A DNA stretch of 18,141 nt from a virus. Lineage: Duplodnaviria; Heunggongvirae; Uroviricota; Caudoviricetes. The DNA is taken from positions 1 through 18,141 of the IMG/VR virus record IMGVR_UViG_2534682108_000010; one strand, written 5' to 3'. The translations under genes were made by a program, and so were the position numbers. Under the pieces are notes generated by a model, which did not search any database, was not told the origin of the DNA, and was given only the letters and a program-made list of their open reading frames with translations. Below, in pieces: positions 2,521 to 14,368 of this stretch. The first letter of the stretch is position 1. The number at the start of each line of letters is the position of its first letter.

Positions 2521-2955
2521 TTACGATCGTAAACTATTTTTTCGCTGATAAAATACAGAGCTTCTCCCTCCCGGCAATTCACGCTCAACATACCGATCCA
2601 TCTCAAGCCTCACTCCCAGCATCATCAGCATGCCTTCAACAATCCCCTCCGCTTTGTGAAGGCGTTTACCTATACAGGTGTCAGAGCACCCATGTTTCCG
2701 TGCCAGCGCCATGAACGTCTCCCCCAACACGTAGTAATCAACCAGCAAGTCATGCAGATCGCGATTGTTCCGGTAAAGGCGGGCTACGCACCCGCATATC
2801 ACCATCGCATCATCGTCACAACATTGCGGGCGAGATTTTACTTTTGAAGGAATTAATCCCTTAAAACCGGCGGCAATGGACGACCAGGTCACATCTTCAT
2901 GATTATTAGCCGCCCACGCTCCCCAACGCTCAAGAACCATCTGAATATCACGCAT
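2521..2955 (-). CDS. Late-gene antiterminator Q
   Basis: Translation [38 protein letters not shown]... with a Cys-rich region, recognised as a lambdoid Q-family protein; GGAG RBS 8 nt upstream of ATG 2953-2955; the ORF-track start at 2970 is a TTG. Confidence 0.85.
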
Positions 2956-3040
2956 CAACTTACTCCACAAAACTCAGACCAGAACGCCAATTACAAGCAA
3001 AAATCAACAAAACAGTATTAGTTGATTGTTATCTCTGACT

Positions 3041-3181
3041 TCATACTCCTGCTCCTGTCAGTGTTTTGGCGTAATTCTTCAGTATTCGGTAATCGGTCAA
3101 AACAGAACCGGGGAAACGATATAAGCGCAGACGCCCCCAGCGGTGGCGAAGAAGTTCTGCCATATTAAACTCAAACATCAT
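3041..3181 (-). CDS. ylcG: Small nin-region protein, YlcG-like (46 aa)
   Basis: [49 protein letters not shown], with ATG overlapping the rusA stop (ATGA coupling); same position as DLP12 ylcG between rusA and Q. Confidence 0.6.
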
Positions 3182-3540
3182 TCATTCCCCATTTCGGTGA
3201 TGGTCAGTTCCAGCCTCCCACCTTTGGTAACAGGCATCTTCACAACGCGGTAATCAACGACCTGAGCATCATCCAGCCAGAAACCTGCTTTAGTGAGTGC
3301 GTCAAAAGCGGCTTTTTGCAGATTATCCAGGTCACGGCGACGGCGATCCGGCATGTGGCACTCAATGCGGATTTTCACAGGCATAGCCAGGCCGATATCC
3401 AGCATTGCGTTTTTAATGATTCGGGCGACGTTATCGCGGTATGCCTGCCCCTCTGCACTGACGTGCGTGCGCCCGCGATTATGGCGGTAATAGCGATTAT
3501 TGCTCGGAGGCCAGGGTAATGTGATACTGTAGGTATTCAC
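3178..3540 (-). CDS. rusA: Holliday-junction resolvase RusA
   Basis: Translation [42 protein letters not shown]... recognised as RusA; GTG start overlapping the upstream stop. Confidence 0.9.
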
Positions 3541-3827
3541 GCCTTAATAACCCCCTCTTTCAGCCAGATAACCTGTGTTCTCGCCATACCTTCCAGCGCG
3601 CATTCTTTTGCATATGCAGCATCGACAAAATGTGTGCGGCGGTCGATTTCGTCGTGGCAGGCAGAACATGCAATGGTGGCAATCAGGTCTGGCGGTTTGA
3701 TACCGGTACCGCACAATCCAGCCAGCCGGATATGTGCCAGTACAGACGTTTCAGAATTGCCATTACATACGCCAGGGATTCTTACCTGGCATTCCCGACC
3801 ACGCGCTGCTTTTCTCAAATCAGCCAT
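3537..3827 (-). CDS. ybcO: DUF1364-family nin-region protein (YbcO-like)
   Basis: Translation [47 protein letters not shown]...CSACHDEID... recognised as YbcO-like; ATG at 3825-3827 overlaps the ninE stop. Confidence 0.8.
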
Positions 3828-3990
3828 GATTCCTCCTTGCTGCCAGTCGCAACCATTTTTTATCAACCAGGCTAGCGGTATATCCGAGCAGTGTTGGTAT
3901 TTCGGATGGCTTCAGCTCAGGCTTACGCTTACGACGATTTGATACTCTGTAGATGTGTCCGTTCATGACACGAATAAGCGGTGTAGCCAT
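3820..3990 (-). CDS. ninE: NinE-like small protein (56 aa)
   Basis: [59 protein letters not shown]. The C-terminal ...YTASLVDKKWLRLAARR resembles lambda NinE (...YTAHLWDIRWLRRRAR); ATG overlaps the ybcN stop. Confidence 0.6.
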   Translation of the reverse strand: MATPLIRVMNGHIYRVSNRRKRKPELKPSEIPTLLGYTASLVDKKWLRLAARRNHG

Positions 3991-4445
3991 TACGCCTCCT
4001 GCTTGTCACGGAGCTGCTGGAACTCGCAGCTCTGCGGAATAGTCAGATGGCAACCAATATTCATCGCCCAGGCTTCAACCTTACACAGGAAGACATACAT
4101 CTCTCCGGTATCAAGATCGGAGGTATGGCGTAACGACTGGATAGTGGTGATATCACCGGTTACGACATCAACCAGGTCTTTGGTTTCATAACCGAGATAT
4201 GTGTGTTTGAGAGCATCTTTTACCCAAGCTGGAGTGGCGAACGTTTTACCCCTGCTGATGAGGTATTCACTGATTTCGCTGTACCACATGTGGCTGAGTG
4301 CATTCTGGGAAAGACTGCGTTTCTCACGCCACGGTTTAAGCACCATGCGAAAGCATTTGCCTTCCTCCAGATAAGGCTGGATCTGCTGGCCGATAGCGGT
4401 GAAGTTACCACGATGCAATTTGATGCCGTCTTGTGGGAGGTTCAC
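3990..4445 (-). CDS. ybcN: YbcN/NinB-family protein
   Basis: 151-aa ORF with GTG start preceded by GGAGG; the motif [20 protein letters not shown] resembles the NinB RNRSLDQNRKLW region; position and length match DLP12 ybcN. Confidence 0.65.
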
Positions 4446-4478
4446 GCTTCACCTCCGCAGAGGTCAAACGCTGGATGC

Positions 4479-4563
4479 AAAAAATCGCAGGTGCATCTCT
4501 GCATCTGTGAAGGGAGAAGAGAGTTTGGATTGTATGTGCGCATAAACGTCCCCGTTTAGCGCA
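4479..4563. repeat. 85-bp direct repeat, copy A
   Basis: 80 of 85 positions identical to 6413-6497; contains a palindromic hairpin tgcgcataaacg-tccc-cgtttagcgca (10-bp stem with 1-nt bulge, tetraloop). Confidence 0.85.
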
Positions 4564-4639
4564 GAAGTCACCGGAGTTGTTCAAGCTCCAATGGCATGAT
4601 TATGGCTGGTTGATTATTGGAAATCAAATGTGCTGAAAA

Positions 4640-5149
4640 TTAGTCTGCCAAGTCTTCCTCAGTCGCAACTGGGTAATTCCAAATATCAAAAAAAGCTATA
4701 GCCTCCTGCCATTTGCTCCATAAGTTATCAAGTACTTGTGTAGGTTCCGTACTTTTAAAAACAGAATCAGCCGCATCACCGTTATGAACTTCCTCGTACA
4801 GTTCCATTATTAGCAGATTAACAAAGTACTGTTTCAACATTAATGCCTGATTACCTTCTTTCTGCTGGCTATCCTGCTTGATGAGCTCCATCGCCCGTAC
4901 TAGGCACCTGATGATATCCGCTGCATCATTAACGCTCCATTCAGATCCGCGCTTATCTTTAGCTGATGAATTGGCTCTCTCAGCGCAAGCCTTTAAAGAC
5001 TCATAAAGGTAAACTCTATTTTGTAGCTGCAGCGCTTTTTTTGACGTGCACCAACTTGCAAGCGCCGACCCCGCTGCGGCTAATGTGCCAAACGCAGAAA
5101 TGCCTGCTGCTATTGCACTTAAGTCGGCACTGTCAAAGTTCCACATCAT
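4640..5149 (-). CDS. Hypothetical protein with hydrophobic N-terminal segment (putative membrane anchor)
   Basis: 169-aa ORF, ATG with AGGTG RBS; N-terminus LSAIAAGISAFGTLAAAGSALASW is hydrophobic; AT-rich; no family recognised. Confidence 0.5.
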   Translation of the reverse strand: MMWNFDSADLSAIAAGISAFGTLAAAGSALASWCTSKKALQLQNRVYLYESLKACAERANSSAKDKRGSEWSVNDAADIIRCLVRAMELIKQDSQQKEGNQALMLKQYFVNLLIMELYEEVHNGDAADSVFKSTEPTQVLDNLWSKWQEAIAFFDIWNYPVATEEDLAD

Positions 5150-5993: not shown

Positions 5994-6149
5994 AGTATCA
6001 CCTCATCAGGTTAACCATCACCACCAACGACGCCAATCGACTGGTGGTGAACTGTGTAAGGTTGGCGTAACCGGCTACTCAAACCCGGCGCTTCCGAAGA
6101 AGCCCTCACACAGCCCACCATAATTTGGGCATAGCCGTGCTTAGCGCAC

Positions 6150-6170
6150 AAAAAAACCGCTTAACGCGGT
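6150..6170 (-). terminator. Possible rho-independent terminator (minus strand)
   Basis: Minus strand: accgc-gttaa-gcggt hairpin followed by TTTTTTT. Confidence 0.45.
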
Positions 6171-6412
6171 ATGCGTTGAGTAGTATCCCGGGACGCCAAT
6201 CCCGTGTGCCGATTTTGCGGCAACGCACAGAATATAGCGCCGGATAAATCATGTCGTCAACCCCAGTAAATGGACACCATGATGATCACAGCCATAGCTG
6301 CTACAACAGTTACAACTACCTCAGGCCAAAACATAACGATTTCCATATCACCTTTAGCCGCCAGACGAATAGAGACTCCCAATTCTGGCTGTCGAAGTAA
6401 AACACCGAATGT

Positions 6413-6497: not shown

Positions 6498-6805
6498 ACC
6501 CCACCACCGGGTGTTCAGGCCGACAGTAACTATATTATTCCCTACTGATTTTTGAAAATCAAAGGTCTTTATACGTCACACGAGAGCAAATATTTCCGAA
6601 GAAGAAACCTTTCGCCTTGAAAGGATAAAGAGTTCATTTCATAAATTGAAATATTCAATAAGAATATTGCAAAAAATGAAATTATTTACTAGCGAGTCTA
6701 TCTAACTGATAATTATGAAGATTGTAAGCGGTAGCAATCACCCGCATACACATTGAACAGGATTTAATACAAAACGTCTTAAATTGTCCGTAAGGAATAG
6801 CACGA

Positions 6806-10569: not shown

Positions 10570-11115
10570 TCATATTGCCCCCAGCATGGTGGTGACCATC
10601 GCCATCAGTGGACCAGCCAAATCCGGGTCCACACGAAACATCGACACAATGCCTTCACTCATCTCCTTCAGTTTCTGGTGGCGTGGTGCGTTGAGAATGA
10701 CAGCCTGTTTTGCCTCACTGAGTTCCTTTTCCATTTCAGCCAGCCGAGCCATGAAGCTATCCTGCTCAACCAGGTGGCCGCGATATTTCAGCGGTAGTAC
10801 TGCCAGAATTGCTGGAGTCAGTTCACGCACGTTATTTCGGTATTTTTCAGAATCGAATTTGTTATCGAGAAAGCGGAACAGCTTCTGGCGTGCACGACTG
10901 ACATCATCAGAAAAATCGATAGTGCCGCCGCCCTGTGCTCGATACTCATTCACAATGAGTGCGGCAACGACATCCTGATTATCTACAGCCGACCAGGCGC
11001 GGATGGCATCACGGATTTTTTCGTGGCCTGGCACCTGTTTTATTTGAGAACGATTTATCACCGCAGTCGGGATAAATCCGCTAGTCTGTTGGTATGTAAG
11101 TGGTTGCATAGTCAT
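10570..11115 (-). CDS. YdaT / CII-like early regulatory protein (Phage_CP76-type)
   Basis: 181-aa ORF between the Cro-like gene and O (the cII position); assignment from position and size, with weak recollection of YdaT-type proteins. Confidence 0.55.
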   Translation of the reverse strand: MTMQPLTYQQTSGFIPTAVINRSQIKQVPGHEKIRDAIRAWSAVDNQDVVAALIVNEYRAQGGGTIDFSDDVSRARQKLFRFLDNKFDSEKYRNNVRELTPAILAVLPLKYRGHLVEQDSFMARLAEMEKELSEAKQAVILNAPRHQKLKEMSEGIVSMFRVDPDLAGPLMAMVTTMLGAI

Positions 11116-11139: not shown

Positions 11140-11367
11140 TTAGGCGGCAGAATTACTCGCGTTAAACAATGGTGCGAGGTCGGGACGAATATCTGCTGGT
11201 TTAATCTTTCCACCAGTGGCTGAGACAATTTTCATTACATAGCGGGCATCAATTCCGCCACCGTGTAGCCAACGCCAAACAGTGGGTTGGGCTACACCGC
11301 ATAGATCTGCCAGTCGTTTTTGACTACCTGTAATACTGATTGCGAGTTGAATGGTTTGATTTGTCAT
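11140..11367 (-). CDS. Cro-like HTH regulator (YdaS-type)
   Basis: Small ORF MTNQTIQLAISITGSQKRLADLCGVAQPTVWRWLHGG... with HTH; divergent from the CI-like repressor; ATG 11365-11367 with AGGA RBS. Confidence 0.7.
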   Translation of the reverse strand: MTNQTIQLAISITGSQKRLADLCGVAQPTVWRWLHGGGIDARYVMKIVSATGGKIKPADIRPDLAPLFNASNSAA

Positions 11368-11477
11368 TATCAATTCCTATTGGTATTGCAATGAATGAAT
11401 AATAGCAATGCGTATTAATCCAAGCAATAGCAAAACGTGTTTTGACCATCAATACGCAAGCGTATAAATTAAAACTT
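11368..11477. promoter_or_regulatory. Immunity control region (OR-like): divergent promoters and operator repeats
   Basis: Minus-strand promoter TTGCTT-17 bp-TATTAT (-10 at 11399-11404, rc) for the Cro-like gene; plus-strand TTGACC (11442-11447)-15 bp-TATAAA (11463-11468) just upstream of the repressor ATG (11478), so the leader is very short; repeated AATAGCAAT/TATTGC motifs and a 14-bp palindrome ATACGCAAGCGTAT. Confidence 0.6.
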
Positions 11478-12170
11478 ATGAAAAAAGAAACTCTTGCTGA
11501 TCGCTTAAACCTAGCGATGGAACAATCTGGAATGTCTCAAGGCGCTCTTGCAAAGGCGTCTGGCGTAGCTCAACCCACAATCTGGAGACTGACAAGCGGC
11601 AACGCGCGCGGCTCAACAAAAATTGTTGAAATAGCTAATGCATTGGGTGTTCGAACAGAATGGCTCTCATCAGGCATAGGCCCGATGAGAAATGACGGTC
11701 AACAATCAGGGAAGCCTGCTGTCAGCCATTCCAAATACTTCAAAATTGACGTTCTTGATATAGAAGTCAGTGCCGGGCCGGGTGTAATCAACCGTGAGTT
11801 TGTAGAAGTTCTACGCTCGGTTGAGTACTCGTTTGACGATGCTCGTCACATGTTCGATGGCAGGAAGGCGGAAAATATCCGCATCATTAACGTGCGTGGT
11901 GACAGCATGTCAGGAACGATCGAACCAGGTGATCTGCTGTTCGTTGATATCACGGTTAAATCTTTCGACGGTGATGGTATCTATGCGTTTCTGTACGACG
12001 ACACAGCCCATGTAAAGCGTCTGCAAATGATGAAGGATAAGCTGCTGGTTATCTCTGATAACAAGAGCTACTCACCGTGGGACCCGATCGAGAAAGACGA
12101 GATGAACCGGGTGTTCATCTTCGGTAAGGTTATTGGGAGCATGCCGCAGACGTATAGGAAGCATGGGTAG
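11478..12170 (+). CDS. CI-like repressor (HTH plus S24 LexA-like autopeptidase domain)
   Basis: From ATG 11478: MKKETLADRLNLAMEQSGMSQGALAKASGVAQPTIWRL... (HTH); C-terminal VRGDSMSGTIEPGD and HVKRL recalled as the S24 Ser/Lys pattern; the ORF-track start at 11442 is a TTG. Confidence 0.85.
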   Translation: MKKETLADRLNLAMEQSGMSQGALAKASGVAQPTIWRLTSGNARGSTKIVEIANALGVRTEWLSSGIGPMRNDGQQSGKPAVSHSKYFKIDVLDIEVSAGPGVINREFVEVLRSVEYSFDDARHMFDGRKAENIRIINVRGDSMSGTIEPGDLLFVDITVKSFDGDGIYAFLYDDTAHVKRLQMMKDKLLVISDNKSYSPWDPIEKDEMNRVFIFGKVIGSMPQTYRKHG

Positions 12171-12216
12171 CGGATTAGCTAATCATTATGATGTTGTTCA
12201 AATTTAAGAGGTCCGC

Positions 12217-13065
12217 ATGTCTTCGATTTGGGGAAAAAAGTTGATGACGAAAGAACAAGAGTCAAACACTGATGAAGTGAAACCAGAGCAAGGAAGTTTG
12301 TTTGAATTAGAATTTCATGAATATACACCTTCAAGCTTAGGCACAGCACACCTTTCTGGTTTCGCTATTGCCACTGATGAAATGGAATATGCAGTTAAAA
12401 GCATGCGCTCCACCCCACCTTTTCCTGTACAAAACCCAACTCAAGTACCGGCAGCGGAATGGTTTTGCACAAATTTAGCTGAAAAATGCGGCATCGCTAC
12501 ACCTGTGTGCAAAATTCTCAAGTGTATTGCTAATGGGGAGTATGTTTTTGGCTCTCGCATAGAGTTTTCAGCCTGGAAATCTGGTCTCAATAGTCCTCAA
12601 TGGATAAATTTGCTCTCAAATGCTTCTGAATCCTTAAAGAAGCAACTCTGGGCAATTTATGCATTTGATCAGTTTGTATATAACATTGACAGACACCTCA
12701 ACAACTACTTATACATGGAAAACACCCGAGGCAATGTTATAGTTAAAACATTCGATTTTAGTCTAAGCTCTTTTGTTATAGGCTGGCCACGAAATACCCC
12801 TCATATACTACCAACAGACTCCAGTACAACAACAAACTGGACGATTGCTAAACAATTCATTGGCGACACTGATGATCTGAGAAAGTGCGCATTATCTGTC
12901 CTTGACAAAATTGAAAAAATTGGAGTTGAGGCTATATCTGATATACTTAACTCTATGCCTGAAGCATGGATGCCACCAATGCATAAGGAGTATTTTTTGA
13001 AGTGGTGGGACAGCGAGGAGCGAATCGATAGGCTAAATGCCATAAGACTGGAGATAACATCTTGA
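12217..13065 (+). CDS. Hypothetical protein with kinase-like catalytic-loop motif (HipA / PI3-PI4-kinase-like); candidate defence gene A
   Basis: 282-aa ORF 46 bp downstream of the repressor, AAGAGG RBS; motif NIDRHLNN followed 21 residues later by FDFS resembles the N-x-D-x-H-x-x-N ... D catalytic pattern of HipA-type kinases; AT-rich. Confidence 0.75.
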   Translation: MSSIWGKKLMTKEQESNTDEVKPEQGSLFELEFHEYTPSSLGTAHLSGFAIATDEMEYAVKSMRSTPPFPVQNPTQVPAAEWFCTNLAEKCGIATPVCKILKCIANGEYVFGSRIEFSAWKSGLNSPQWINLLSNASESLKKQLWAIYAFDQFVYNIDRHLNNYLYMENTRGNVIVKTFDFSLSSFVIGWPRNTPHILPTDSSTTTNWTIAKQFIGDTDDLRKCALSVLDKIEKIGVEAISDILNSMPEAWMPPMHKEYFLKWWDSEERIDRLNAIRLEITS

Positions 13066-13868
13066 AAACTTTCAAATACAGCTTAATCAGAGTTACACCG
13101 AACTTAGAGAAAGGTGAAACGATTAACGTTGGTTTGATCGTTTACCATGACTCTGACATAGACGTACGTATGCTCAATTCAGTTTCAAAACTTAAAGCGA
13201 TTGACAAAGATCTTACCTTAGATTACTTAGAGGATCTTTCGACCTCGCTTTTTGATTTGTCACAAAAAATCAACAATGCTGAACTTCTTCCTTGTCTTTT
13301 TAAGGGAGCATTATCGTTATCGTCATTTGGCATGTTCACTCTTCAAGCCAACGAAGATTACGAAGCTAAAGTTACTGATCTAATGAATCGGTTAGTAAAC
13401 CCACAAAAACAGCCACATAAACAGTTGAAAAAAAAGGTTTTTTCTGAATTAAAATCCACCTTTATACAACATGGAATTTTCAGTAAGTATTTTGAAGATC
13501 TTTCCCAACATAAAATCGTAGCTAATTATCCAATTAGTAATGAAGAAGGGTTAGTTGCAGATTTTTTGTTAAAAAATGGCAAATACCATCTTACAGAAAC
13601 ATTAGATTTTCGTTCTGAAAATATAAAAAAACAAATGGGTGAAGCTGCGATAAGTGTTTTAACAATTACTAAAGCCTACGAATTATACAATTCAAATATT
13701 GATTCATTTGTAATTTTTGCCGCTGAAACGACAGCACAAGAAAAGTCAGCAAAACAGCAGCTAAATCTACTGGAAAAACACGCTGATAATCTTATCAACG
13801 CATATAGCAAAGAAGACATGCGTTCATATTACGAAAAGATGCTGAATGCTGCCTCTATGTTACAGTAG
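13062..13868 (+). CDS. Hypothetical protein, partner of the kinase-like gene; candidate defence gene B
   Basis: 268-aa ORF whose TTG start overlaps the upstream stop (TTGA), GGAG RBS 8 nt upstream; N-terminus MKTFKYSLIRVTPNLEKGETINVGLIVYHD; followed by terminator 13896-13922; AT-rich. Confidence 0.75.
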   Translation: MKTFKYSLIRVTPNLEKGETINVGLIVYHDSDIDVRMLNSVSKLKAIDKDLTLDYLEDLSTSLFDLSQKINNAELLPCLFKGALSLSSFGMFTLQANEDYEAKVTDLMNRLVNPQKQPHKQLKKKVFSELKSTFIQHGIFSKYFEDLSQHKIVANYPISNEEGLVADFLLKNGKYHLTETLDFRSENIKKQMGEAAISVLTITKAYELYNSNIDSFVIFAAETTAQEKSAKQQLNLLEKHADNLINAYSKEDMRSYYEKMLNAASMLQ

Positions 13869-13895
13869 AAAAAACTGACTAATTTAATTAATAAC

Positions 13896-13922
13896 CCGGC
13901 CACCGTGCCGGGTTTTCTTTTG
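13896..13922 (+). terminator. Rho-independent terminator ending the repressor operon
   Basis: cccggc-caccgt-gccggg hairpin followed by TTTTCTTTT. Confidence 0.7.
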
Positions 13923-14039
13923 TCCCCTCCCCTCATCACACACCGCTCAAAAAACCACCACATCCCTGCTTCAGTTATCGCTATGCGATGCAAGTCACAA
14001 AATTAATTCTTTTTGCTATCAAACATTTAATATCAAAAC

Positions 14040-14095
14040 ACATCAGTCAATAGCAATAAGTATTGATATCACCAATAGCAATAGCTATTATCACC
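14040..14095 (+). promoter_or_regulatory. pL-like early-left promoter with operator repeats (OL-like)
   Basis: TTGATA (14060-14065)-17 bp-TATTAT (14083-14088) on the plus strand; AATAGCAAT motifs (as in the OR region) overlap the spacer, and TATCACC occurs twice. Confidence 0.6.
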
Positions 14096-14368
14096 ATATC
14101 GCAACAACACAACGATACGGCAACCACCTGATTCACCGTTGCGATGACCGCTTAGATCCGCAGTTTGAATTTCAGCAGGCTTCGGGGAGTGCGAGGGGTG
14201 AAACGGACGCGTGAACGTCGGTGTGACCAGCTGAAATTAACTCAACATTTCATACCTCAGTCGCTTCAACGAGGCGGCTTAGTTATGACAACCGGCGGCC
14301 ATCCACCGCCTGAATACGCGCAGAAGTCTCTATATGTTCAGCAGCCCAGCTTACGGGCAGGAGTTTTT

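Follow-up and report, generated by a model that had tools for sequence, protein, structure and literature searches.

A lambdoid immunity switch of the ST104/BTP1/4A7 type with candidate 16-bp operators common to CI and Cro

Introduction

Does a single repressor act at both the OR-like and the OL-like sites of the region between positions 11,368 and 14,095 of an 18,141-bp viral sequence (the whole of which is called the window below), does a second specificity operate at OL, and where does the repressor message begin? The analysis presented here points, with a probability of about 0.85, to an immunity (lysis-lysogeny) switch of a lambdoid E. coli prophage of the ST104/BTP1/4A7 type, in which CI and Cro would share 16-bp sites and the lambda-like TATCACC words at OL would be spacer sequence. 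The features on which this reading is built are collected in Table 1.

Table 1. Features of the immunity region, with positions in the window.
Feature	Position	Strand	Sequence	Remarks
cro-like gene	11140..11367	-		75 aa; YdaS/Cro-type HTH; recognition helix GVAQPTVWR
Candidate fourth OR site	11372..11387		AATTCCTATTGGTATT	29 bp from OR1; in cro leader, over cro Shine-Dalgarno
pR-like promoter	11399..11427	-	TTGCTT-17-TATTAT	-35 at 11427-11422, -10 at 11404-11399
OR1	11401..11416		AATAGCAATGCGTATT	overlaps pR -10 and spacer; 2 mismatches to AATAGCnnnnGCTATT palindrome
OR2	11426..11441		AATAGCAAAACGTGTT	overlaps pR -35, abuts pRM -35
pRM-like promoter	11442..11470	+	TTGACC-17-TAAATT	9/12 matches in consensus scan; invariant in relatives
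OR3	11451..11466		AATACGCAAGCGTATA	within pRM spacer and -10
cI-like repressor gene	11478..12170	+		230 aa; 434-type HTH N-terminal domain, S24 self-cleaving C-terminal domain
Cargo pair, rexAB-equivalent slot	12217..13868	+		HipA-like kinase 12217-13065, DUF3037 protein 13062-13868
Intrinsic terminator	13893..13914	+		ends cI operon; 8-bp stem with 6 GC pairs, then T-run
Distal element	14001..14022		AAAT(T/A)AATTCnTTTnGCTATCAA	conserved; left edge of immunity-specific OL cassette
Degenerate OL3 position	14029..14044		AATATCAAAACACATC	20 bp from OL2
OL2	14049..14064		AATAGCAATAAGTATT	overlaps pL -35; 2 mismatches to AATAGCnnnnGCTATT palindrome
pL-like promoter	14063..14091	+	TTGATA-17-TATTAT	predicted start near 14098
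First TATCACC	14067..14073	+	TATCACC	OL2-OL1 spacer, from end of pL -35
OL1	14074..14089		AATAGCAATAGCTATT	perfect 6+6 palindrome, 0 mismatches; in pL spacer and -10
Second TATCACC	14089..14095	+	TATCACC	covers end of pL -10 and discriminator

Genes, promoters and terminator

The cro-like and cI-like genes are transcribed divergently from either side of a 110-bp gap that contains divergent promoters. The cro product is assigned by Pfam to YdaS_toxin (9.6e-15), with a weak match to P22_Cro, and its nearest solved structures are Cro-family proteins. The repressor combines an HTH (Pfam HTH_3) with a LexA-like S24 domain (Peptidase_S24, 1.3e-18) in which the Ala-Gly cleavage site lies in AGPG from residue 99 and the Ser/Lys dyad in GDSM at 141 and VKRL at 179, the nearest solved structures being the 434 repressor and UmuD'. 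The recognition helices of the two proteins are near-identical, GVAQPTVWR in Cro against GVAQPTIWR in CI (helix 3, QPTIWR), and a QPT(I/V)WR helix is common to CI and Cro across the E. coli, Salmonella, Klebsiella and Yersinia relatives. Downstream of cI, the slot equivalent to rexAB holds different genes among relatives and is here occupied by a pair presumably co-transcribed with cI (Pfam HipA_2 and DUF3037); a HipA-family kinase with a DUF3037 partner constitutes the validated HipAD/DS-6 defence system (PMC13092281).

pL is the best promoter match of the region in the consensus scan (10/12), while pR was missed by the scan because its -35 matches the consensus at only three of six bases. 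The TTG of the pR -35, within OR2, and the whole -10, within OR1, are invariant in 46 relatives, the last three -35 bases being variable, and the start predicted from the sequence near 11392 would give cro a 25-nt leader. Whether pRM depends on activation by CI is uncertain, because its -35 (TTGACC) is already strong. The terminator of the cI operon is conserved in relatives, and an Rfam scan of the whole window found no RNA family between 11368 and 14095. A put-like antiterminator RNA in the 187-nt pL leader was considered and dropped, as the folding of this leader does not stand out from that of shuffled sequence (z = -0.86) and its matches are confined to close relatives, with none to HK022.

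Operators at OR and OL

The motif which the original prediction proposed to be common to the OR-like and OL-like sites was recovered as a 16-bp imperfect palindrome, AATAGCnnnnGCTATT, present at both clusters. The word AATAGCAA occurs in exactly four copies in the window, all on the plus strand (11401, 11426, 14049 and 14074), and these form two pairs, each with a 25-bp spacing, one between cro and cI and one upstream of pL. The AATAGCAA/TATTGC repeats catalogued earlier are hence present, but the earlier reading had overlooked OR3 and the fact that the sites are palindromes. Multiple related palindromic operators, set in the OR array at an exact 25/25-bp spacing, overlap both divergent promoters, and the second cluster overlaps pL, an arrangement much like that of the lambda operators. 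The consensus operator duplex of the 16-mers may be written as AATAGCAATTGCTATT.

A weight matrix derived from the sites of other, related phages only was scored over the window, and its top six matches were, in order, OR1 (21.2), OL1 (21.1), OL2 (18.5), OR3 (15.4), the site at 11372-87 (14.4) and OR2 (13.7), to be compared with a best score that averages 11.1 +/- 2.1 in simulated sequence. OR2 is in itself a weak match. A window-wide search for the palindrome alone, allowing three mismatches, was not significant (16 matches against 9.2 expected), and the significance of the operators therefore derives from matrix ranking, spacing and conservation rather than from a simple palindrome search. 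Comparison across homologous immunity regions, one of the checks suggested at the outset, was made on 46 unique OR and 54 unique OL regions of related phages: hardly any variation is seen in the 16-mers or in the promoter bases within them, in contrast to the spacers, and OL1 has a mean column variability of 0.003 among E. coli-type relatives. All relatives carry the same sites at both the OR and the OL cluster. A search of the literature with operator words and for ST64T, ST104 and BTP1 operators returned no description of these sites, and no binding, footprint or 5'-end data for the ST104/BTP1/4A7 immunity type were found in the searchable literature.

Which protein reads the 16-mers is indicated by a natural exchange. 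The phages PhiR5_1 and PhiR47_2 have the CI C-terminal domain and both OL flanks in common with the phage studied here, but swap CI helices 2-3, cro, OR and an OL cassette of about 95 bp for an AACAAC/GTTGTT set, so that operator specificity co-varies with the DNA-binding determinants of CI and Cro. Against this background it is hardly credible that the 16-mers, instead of being CI operators, serve chiefly as sites for Cro or some other factor, or as repeats for replication or packaging. A Cro with the same recognition helix must indeed bind somewhere in OR, and a YdaT-type inverted repeat overlaps the start of cro (11356-73). However, the 16-mers recur at pL, 2.6 kb away, over both -35 and -10, and in the heteroimmune relatives a changed CI N-terminal domain comes with changed sites. 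Phages that have these sites do not all possess one set of replication genes, which are O/P in the present phage and primase/helicase in SE1 and Fraca. The YdaT protein encoded here is too diverged for any solved-structure match by sequence; as it shows no sequence match to the solved CP-933P protein, the TTGATT-N6-AATCAA matches are not assignable to it. That one repressor specificity serves the OR-like and OL-like clusters, as in lambda, is the claim originally made, and the identical sites in all relatives and their co-variation with the recognition helices make it the most likely reading of the sequence.

Additional and degenerate sites

Besides these five operators, two conserved AATTC-type sites, at 11372-87 and 14005-20, are without counterpart in the lambda model. 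A TATTGC noted originally at 11384-89 belongs to the first of these operator-like 16-mers, the fifth-best matrix match of the window. Its half-sites, (A/T)ATTCC...GTAT(T/A), are conserved in relatives from E. coli, Klebsiella, Salmonella and Yersinia, whereas its central bases vary. The second is a weak operator-like 16-mer inside the distal element, which is itself nearly invariant in the 54 OL regions even though their upstream flanks are unrelated; its assignment as an operator is tentative because the matrix score is only 7.7. It is conceivable, although we consider it rather doubtful, that CI or Cro binds both sites, adding a fourth OR operator and a distal OL anchor. If so, the site at 11372-87 would work beyond the pR start, either as a roadblock or through occlusion of cro translation, and that at 14005-20 could serve OL-OR looping, which would represent two layers of control with no lambda equivalent. 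The OL3 position, finally, aligns with a full operator (e.g. AATAGCAATTGCTATC) in Klebsiella-type relatives and is absent from the top 20 matrix matches of the window.

The TATCACC heptamers

The two TATCACC heptamers reported at the OL-like site do exist, but the hybrid or second repressor specificity that they were taken to hint at finds no support. A reading in which they are half-sites for lambda CI, or for the lambda-like CI of a co-resident prophage, giving a hybrid control of pL, draws on their position 22 bp apart on either side of OL1, on the identity of TATCACC with the consensus half of lambda operators, and on the low likelihood, under a simple random model, of two copies within 30 bp. 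Such a reading is nevertheless highly improbable. Neither heptamer forms part of a 17-bp TATCACCGC-type operator with two inverted half-sites, the two being direct repeats and having no counterpart at OR. Scored with a matrix of lambda's six annotated operators, which themselves reach 13.9-22.6, the first and second heptamer sites obtain 2.9 and -9.2, below the chance maximum of 11.4 +/- 1.8.

Nor are the heptamers conserved among phages with the same control region. The columns occupied by the first are the most variable ones of the region, and it is retained in 10 of 27 close relatives among 12 spacer variants (the spacer reads GATATCACC here and GATACAGCC in 4A7). The second is present in 21 of the 27, and other lineages have ATCATC, ATCAAT or GTTTAG in its place. 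Neither heptamer occurs in the pL regions of SE1/BTP1 and of the Klebsiella relatives, which possess the same operators. TATCACC does occur nine times in the window against 1.55 in dinucleotide shuffles, an excess that was rejected as a signal and is compositional: related phage DNA is likewise rich in the word, at 3.8-4.7 copies per 18 kb, and there are 218 other 7-mers in the window that attain a count of nine. The TATCACC words thus appear to be spacer and discriminator sequence, and an operator role is not supported.

The repressor transcript and its start codon

The proposal of a near-leaderless repressor transcript gains support from the layout of pRM, TTGACC-17-TAAATT, the -10 of which is separated by 7 nt from the cI ATG at 11478. 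No purine-rich Shine-Dalgarno precedes this ATG in TAAATTAAAACTTATG, and in about 30 distinct relatives the gap from -10 to ATG is fixed at 7 nt while its sequence varies (AAAACTT, GAATATT, TGAAATT, TAAACTC and similar), again with no Shine-Dalgarno. For the related prophage BTP1, dRNA-seq shows one start site for the transcription of cI together with the gene that follows it (PMC7067206). The cI mRNA of the present phage is, by inference, leaderless or nearly so.

The opposing view is that cI starts at the upstream TTG at 11442, yielding a 242-aa product from a leadered transcript of another promoter, in which case the mRNA would not be leaderless. The frame is open from 11406 with this TTG in frame, no relative has a stop codon in the 36-nt extension, the GenBank records of PhiR30_1 and BTP1 use this start, and a pRE-like establishment transcript from the cro/ydaT side would have a long leader. 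The TTG is, however, the -35 hexamer of the only good plus-strand promoter here, and the 12 additional codons fall on OR3 and pRM, so that a function of the DNA explains their conservation. Furthermore, homology to the 434 repressor begins at residues 6-8 of the ATG-initiated CI, PGAP chooses the ATG at 11478, and the constant 7-nt distance in spite of a varying sequence speaks for the ATG; neither start has a Shine-Dalgarno. The TTG start is consequently considered unlikely, and a short or missing leader before the ATG is retained as the preferred reading.

Comparison with known switches

The region resembles lambda in gene order (cro <- OR -> cI - cargo - terminator - OL/pL), in the tripartite OR with operator centres 19.5 (OR3), 44.5 (OR2) and 69.5 (OR1) bp upstream of the cI ATG (19, 42 and 66 bp from the cI start in lambda), in an OR-OL separation of 2.4-2.7 kb (OR1 to OL1, 2,673 bp here and 2,407 bp in lambda), in the S24 self-cleaving CI, and in a -10 just upstream of an ATG with no Shine-Dalgarno. 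It differs from lambda in the operator itself (16 bp, AATAGCnnnnGCTATT, versus 17 bp, TATCACCGCCAGTGGTA), in operator spacing (25/25 versus 24/23 bp), in the strong -35 of pRM, in the YdaS-type Cro and the YdaT-type protein in the cII slot, in having no N gene after pL, and in the degenerate OL3 and the two additional conserved sites of AATTC type. For the CI N-terminal domain the closest similarity is to the DNA-binding domain of the 434 repressor (E about 2e-5), and in phage 434, too, repressor and Cro have near-identical recognition helices and one operator set, but helix 3 is QQSIEQ in 434 and QPTIWR here. The 434 operator is a 14-bp site with an ACAA half-site, as compared with the AATAGC half-site of the 16-bp site in the present phage.

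The closest systems are those of the Salmonella P22-like phages ST104, SE1 and BTP1, Klebsiella ST11-VIM1phi8.2 and the E. coli 4A7, Perceval and PhiR30_1 group. They have the same operators, spacing and promoter overlap at both OR and OL, a CI N-terminal domain that is 87-100% identical, the same Cro recognition helix and the same pRM-ATG layout, while their spacers and TATCACC words differ from those of this phage. Variation extends to the cargo between cI and OL (BstA in BTP1, ParA-like in SE1, HipA-like/DUF3037 here) and to what follows pL, namely an N-like gene and nutL in the Salmonella phages and kil directly in the present one. The ST104 repressor has been listed as a specificity type of its own in the epsilon34 genome paper (PMC2629481). 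Systems of the CP-933P/Rac type (PaaR2 or RacR, YdaS, YdaT) likewise have a YdaS-family Cro analogue, a YdaT-family protein in the cII slot, a leaderless repressor gene and OL-like operators at a pL-like promoter (PMC8630535, PMC9986795). They are set apart by the PaaR2 repressor, compared with the classical S24 CI here, and, in CP-933P, by unrelated operators of the GTTTAGTAA type.

The proposed switch

Sites, geometry, conservation and co-variation with the proteins were computed, and we infer binding, order of occupancy, activation, looping and the transcript 5' end. Homology and layout suggest that dimers of the 230-aa CI, through its 434-like HTH and with its LexA/S24-type domain, would bind the 16-bp AATAGCnnnnGCTATT sites. 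With the pR -10 under OR1, and with OR2 lying over the pR -35 and directly beside that of pRM, CI bound to these two sites would shut off cro and could stimulate pRM, whereas on OR3, inside pRM, it would hold its own production in check. Some 2.67 kb from OR, OL1 and OL2 cover pL in the same register. Since its recognition helix is almost identical to that of CI, Cro would read the same sites and may run the opposite programme, and SOS-induced self-cleavage at the Ala-Gly site would inactivate CI. pRM would yield a cI mRNA that is leaderless or has a 1-nt leader, together with the HipA-like/DUF3037 defence pair.

Distribution and implications

Of 5,426 complete E. coli genomes, 723 (about 13%) carry the immunity module, and at the operator level it is common to Salmonella BTP1/ST104, Klebsiella and Yersinia prophages. 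It is an ordinary lambdoid prophage immunity switch of a known type, and the understanding of how such switches work is unchanged by it. Knowledge of its operators and promoters allows repressor genes now annotated from a start codon within the -35 hexamer to be corrected, and accounts for the expression of defence cargo (HipA/DUF3037, BstA) from the repressor promoter in lysogens. The module also offers a defined repressor/operator pair, unrelated in sequence to that of lambda, which is usable in synthetic circuits, and its operator sequence and layout predict which prophages are homoimmune.

Putative operator sites and promoter geometry

The window contains exactly four copies of the octamer AATAGCAA, at positions 11401, 11426, 14049 and 14074, always on the plus strand and as two pairs, each with 25-bp spacing. 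One pair lies between cro and cI (OR) and the other at pL, the predicted promoter of the kil operon, which confirms the element that the original prediction had proposed to be shared by two operator-like clusters. The putative operator is an imperfect palindrome of 16 bp, AATAGCnnnnGCTATT, and a third site, OR3, absent from the earlier list, lies exactly 25 bp beyond OR2. A loose palindrome search alone returned 16 matches across the window against 9.2 expected, which is not significant, and a weight matrix was therefore built from sites of other phages (SE1, BTP1, a Klebsiella phage, Fraca and a Yersinia phage), leaving out the window's own. The six highest scores in the window belong to OR1 (21.2), OL1 (21.1), OL2 (18.5), OR3 (15.4), the element at 11372-87 (14.4) and OR2 (13.7); in simulated sequence the top score was 11.1 +/- 2.1 on average.

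Features of the immunity region and of the flanking prophage DNA
Feature	Position	Direction or strand	Remarks
STnc100	533-739	minus	Rfam
Four tRNA genes	1755-2079	minus	Rfam
C4 antisense RNA	6040-6222	minus	Rfam; beside isrK
Lambda-type O and P replication genes			left of cro
YdaT-family gene	11115-10570		in cII slot, left of cro
cro-like gene	11367-11140	leftward	75 aa; YdaS/Cro-type HTH
Element AATTCCTATTGGTATT	11372-87		cro leader, over cro Shine-Dalgarno
OR1	11401-16		two mismatches to palindrome
OR2	11426-41		three mismatches to palindrome
OR3, AATACGCAAGCGTATA	11451-66
cI-like gene	11478-12170	rightward	230 aa; HTH_3 and Peptidase_S24
HipA-like kinase gene	12217-13065		cargo; rexAB-equivalent slot, between cI and terminator
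DUF3037 protein gene	13062-13868		cargo; 4-bp overlap with HipA-like kinase gene
Strong intrinsic terminator	13893-13914		3' of cargo genes
Element AAAT(T/A)AATTCnTTTnGCTATCAA	14001-22		nearly invariant in every lineage despite unrelated upstream flanks
OL2	14049-64		two mismatches to palindrome
pL	14063-14091	rightward	TTGATA-17-TATTAT; into kil-gam-bet-exo operon
First TATCACC	14067-73		OL2-OL1 spacer
OL1	14074-89		perfect palindrome
Second TATCACC	14089-95		end of pL -10 and discriminator

The gene order is that of the lambda immunity region on the opposite strand, and the sites overlap the predicted promoters. OR1 contains the -10 of pR, the minus-strand promoter of cro (TTGCTT-17-TATTAT), and the edge of OR2 provides the TTG of its -35. 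The same register is seen at pL, the top sigma-70 match of the region in the promoter scan, where the edge of OL2 supplies the TTG and the -10 falls within OL1. The cI promoter pRM (TTGACC-17-TAAATT, 11442-70) adjoins OR2 and encloses OR3. Compared to the annotated operators of lambda (NC_001416), the distances from the centres of OR3, OR2 and OR1 to the cI ATG are 19.5, 44.5 and 69.5 bp in the window versus 19, 42 and 66 bp in lambda, and OR1 and OL1 are 2,673 versus 2,407 bp apart.

Two further sequences, at 11372-87 and 14001-22, are conserved operator-like elements outside the lambda model and may be bound by CI or Cro. In the former, the half-sites are kept in all lineages aligned while the central bases vary. 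A position 20 bp left of OL2 is degenerate in the window and a full operator in Klebsiella-type phages.

Beyond pL, an N-like antiterminator gene is absent before kil (14098-14368). Heteroimmune phages share the pL leader (about 190 nt) at 95-99% identity, and its predicted fold is no better than that of shuffled sequence. A mosaic junction (...ATA|TCGCAACAAC) falls at most a few bases from the predicted pL start.

Predicted start of the repressor transcript

The repressor promoter had also been predicted to lie close to the start codon, and this holds: the pRM -10 ends at 11470, seven nucleotides before the ATG at 11478, with no Shine-Dalgarno sequence between them. The 7-nt gap is fixed in all of about 30 distinct relatives while its sequence varies (variants include AAAACTT, GAATATT, TGAAATT, TAAACTC and TAATGTC). 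The gap is 6 nt in lambda, and in the Yersinia relative the lambda sequence TAGATT is separated from the ATG by 7 nt. Design logic and conservation give good support to the prediction of a leaderless cI mRNA. The PGAP chromosome annotation begins cI at this ATG, and the GenBank/RefSeq coding sequences of PhiR30_1 cI (2843-3571 of locus L003) and BTP1 c1 (3965-4690 of locus L007) begin at a TTG 36 nt upstream, which is the pRM -35 hexamer and adds 12 codons overlying OR3. In BTP1, dRNA-seq assigned cI and the downstream bstA to a single start site (PMC7067206).

The TATCACC heptamers

The two copies at pL of TATCACC, the consensus half of lambda operators, had been read as a hint of hybrid or second repressor specificity, a reading that the comparisons do not support. 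Of 27 E. coli-type pL regions, 10 carry the first copy and 21 the second, and neither occurs in the SE1/BTP1 and Klebsiella pL regions, which share the same operators. The OL2-OL1 spacer is the most variable stretch (12 variants in these 27 regions; mean variability 0.12 versus 0.003-0.02 in the operators). Under a matrix of the six lambda operators, the two 17-mers score 2.9 and -9.2, against 13.9-22.6 for lambda's own sites and a chance maximum of 11.4. The copies are direct repeats and have no counterpart at OR. The apparent excess of the heptamer in the window (nine against 1.55 expected) is compositional; in related phage DNA its frequency is 3.8-4.7 per 18 kb. Inside the YdaT-like gene (11056-11064), the complete lambda consensus half-site of 9 bp, TATCACCGC, scores only 8.2 with the lambda-operator matrix, below the chance maximum, and is taken as a coincidence.

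Other features of the prophage

A HipA-family kinase with a DUF3037 partner, like the cargo pair of the window, makes up the anti-phage system HipAD (DS-6), which was validated recently (PMC13092281). A 500-aa open reading frame at 6806-8308 matches the PD-Lambda-1 defence protein (DUF4041; E ~1e-198), a second defence gene of this prophage. The C4/isrK pair is of the type found in P1/P7-like antirepressor control regions. Near-perfect copies (0 or 1 mismatch) of TTGATT-N6-AATCAA lie at 4610-4627, 6545-6562 and 11356-11373, the last spanning the cro start codon; 0.12 are expected by chance, and none of 200 shuffles reached three. This inverted repeat is bound by YdaT of CP-933P. The YdaT-family protein of the window has no sequence match to any solved structure, being too diverged, and its link to the repeats is therefore only a lead.

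Conservation and natural exchange of the module

The module of cro, OR, the N-terminal part of cI and OL is found at 96-100% identity in the E. coli phages PhiR30_1, 4A7, Lambda_4C10 and Perceval. The CI N-terminal domain is 87-88% identical in Salmonella SE1, ST104, ST160 and BTP1 and in Klebsiella ST11-VIM1phi8.2, and more distant carriers are Fraca (75%) and Yersinia vB_YenM_21.09 (64%). All have the same three OR sites and at least two OL sites with 24-25-bp spacing. With further examples from a degenerate pattern scan of IMG/VR, 46 unique OR and 54 unique OL regions of this immunity family were aligned. The motif comparison across homologous immunity regions that had been proposed found the 16-mers and overlapping promoter bases nearly invariant at OR and OL, the variable columns being the OR1-OR2 and OL2-OL1 spacers and the 7-nt gap that separates the pRM -10 from the cI ATG. 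The module is very common: of the 5,426 complete genomes of E. coli, 723 carry it. The cargo slot holds BstA in BTP1, GevTA in PhiR47_2 and a ParA-like gene in SE1, and OL2 lies 884 to 3,015 bp from the cI ATG, depending on the relative.

A natural swap is seen in PhiR5_1 and PhiR47_2, which are 90-99% identical to the window in the CI C-terminal domain, the terminator and both OL flanks (left of OL to ...CAAGTCACAAAAT, and the pL leader from TCGCAACAACAC on). The segment between these borders is a different one, a cassette of about 95 bp whose AACAAC/GTTGTT sites match those of their own OR. CI helix 3 reads SQAAIQK in these phages versus AQPTIWR in the window phage, and the Cro helix SQQAVYK versus AQPTVWR. 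As helices and sites differ jointly, recognition helices, OR and OL move as one unit, consistent with the 16-mers serving as operators for the window CI and Cro. Similarity to the PhiR5_1/PhiR47_2 CI begins directly after helix 3 (TKIVEIANALGV... shared; about 11610-11620, codons 45-47). This boundary points to an exchangeable unit of cro, OR and the first ~45 cI codons, paired with the OL cassette. The swap, together with the same sites in relatives, makes it most likely that one repressor specificity serves both operator clusters.

GVAQPT(I/V)WR is common to the window CI and Cro, and among solved structures the 434 repressor is closest to the CI N-terminal domain. In phage 434, the textbook example, a repressor and a Cro with similar helices act on one operator set. 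The ST104 repressor was given as a separate specificity type in the epsilon34 genome paper (PMC2629481); the present operator set was not found in the literature searched, and the BTP1 papers hold no operator description. Every lambdoid switch feature that can be addressed in sequence was found here, and the switch would work like those of lambda and 434.
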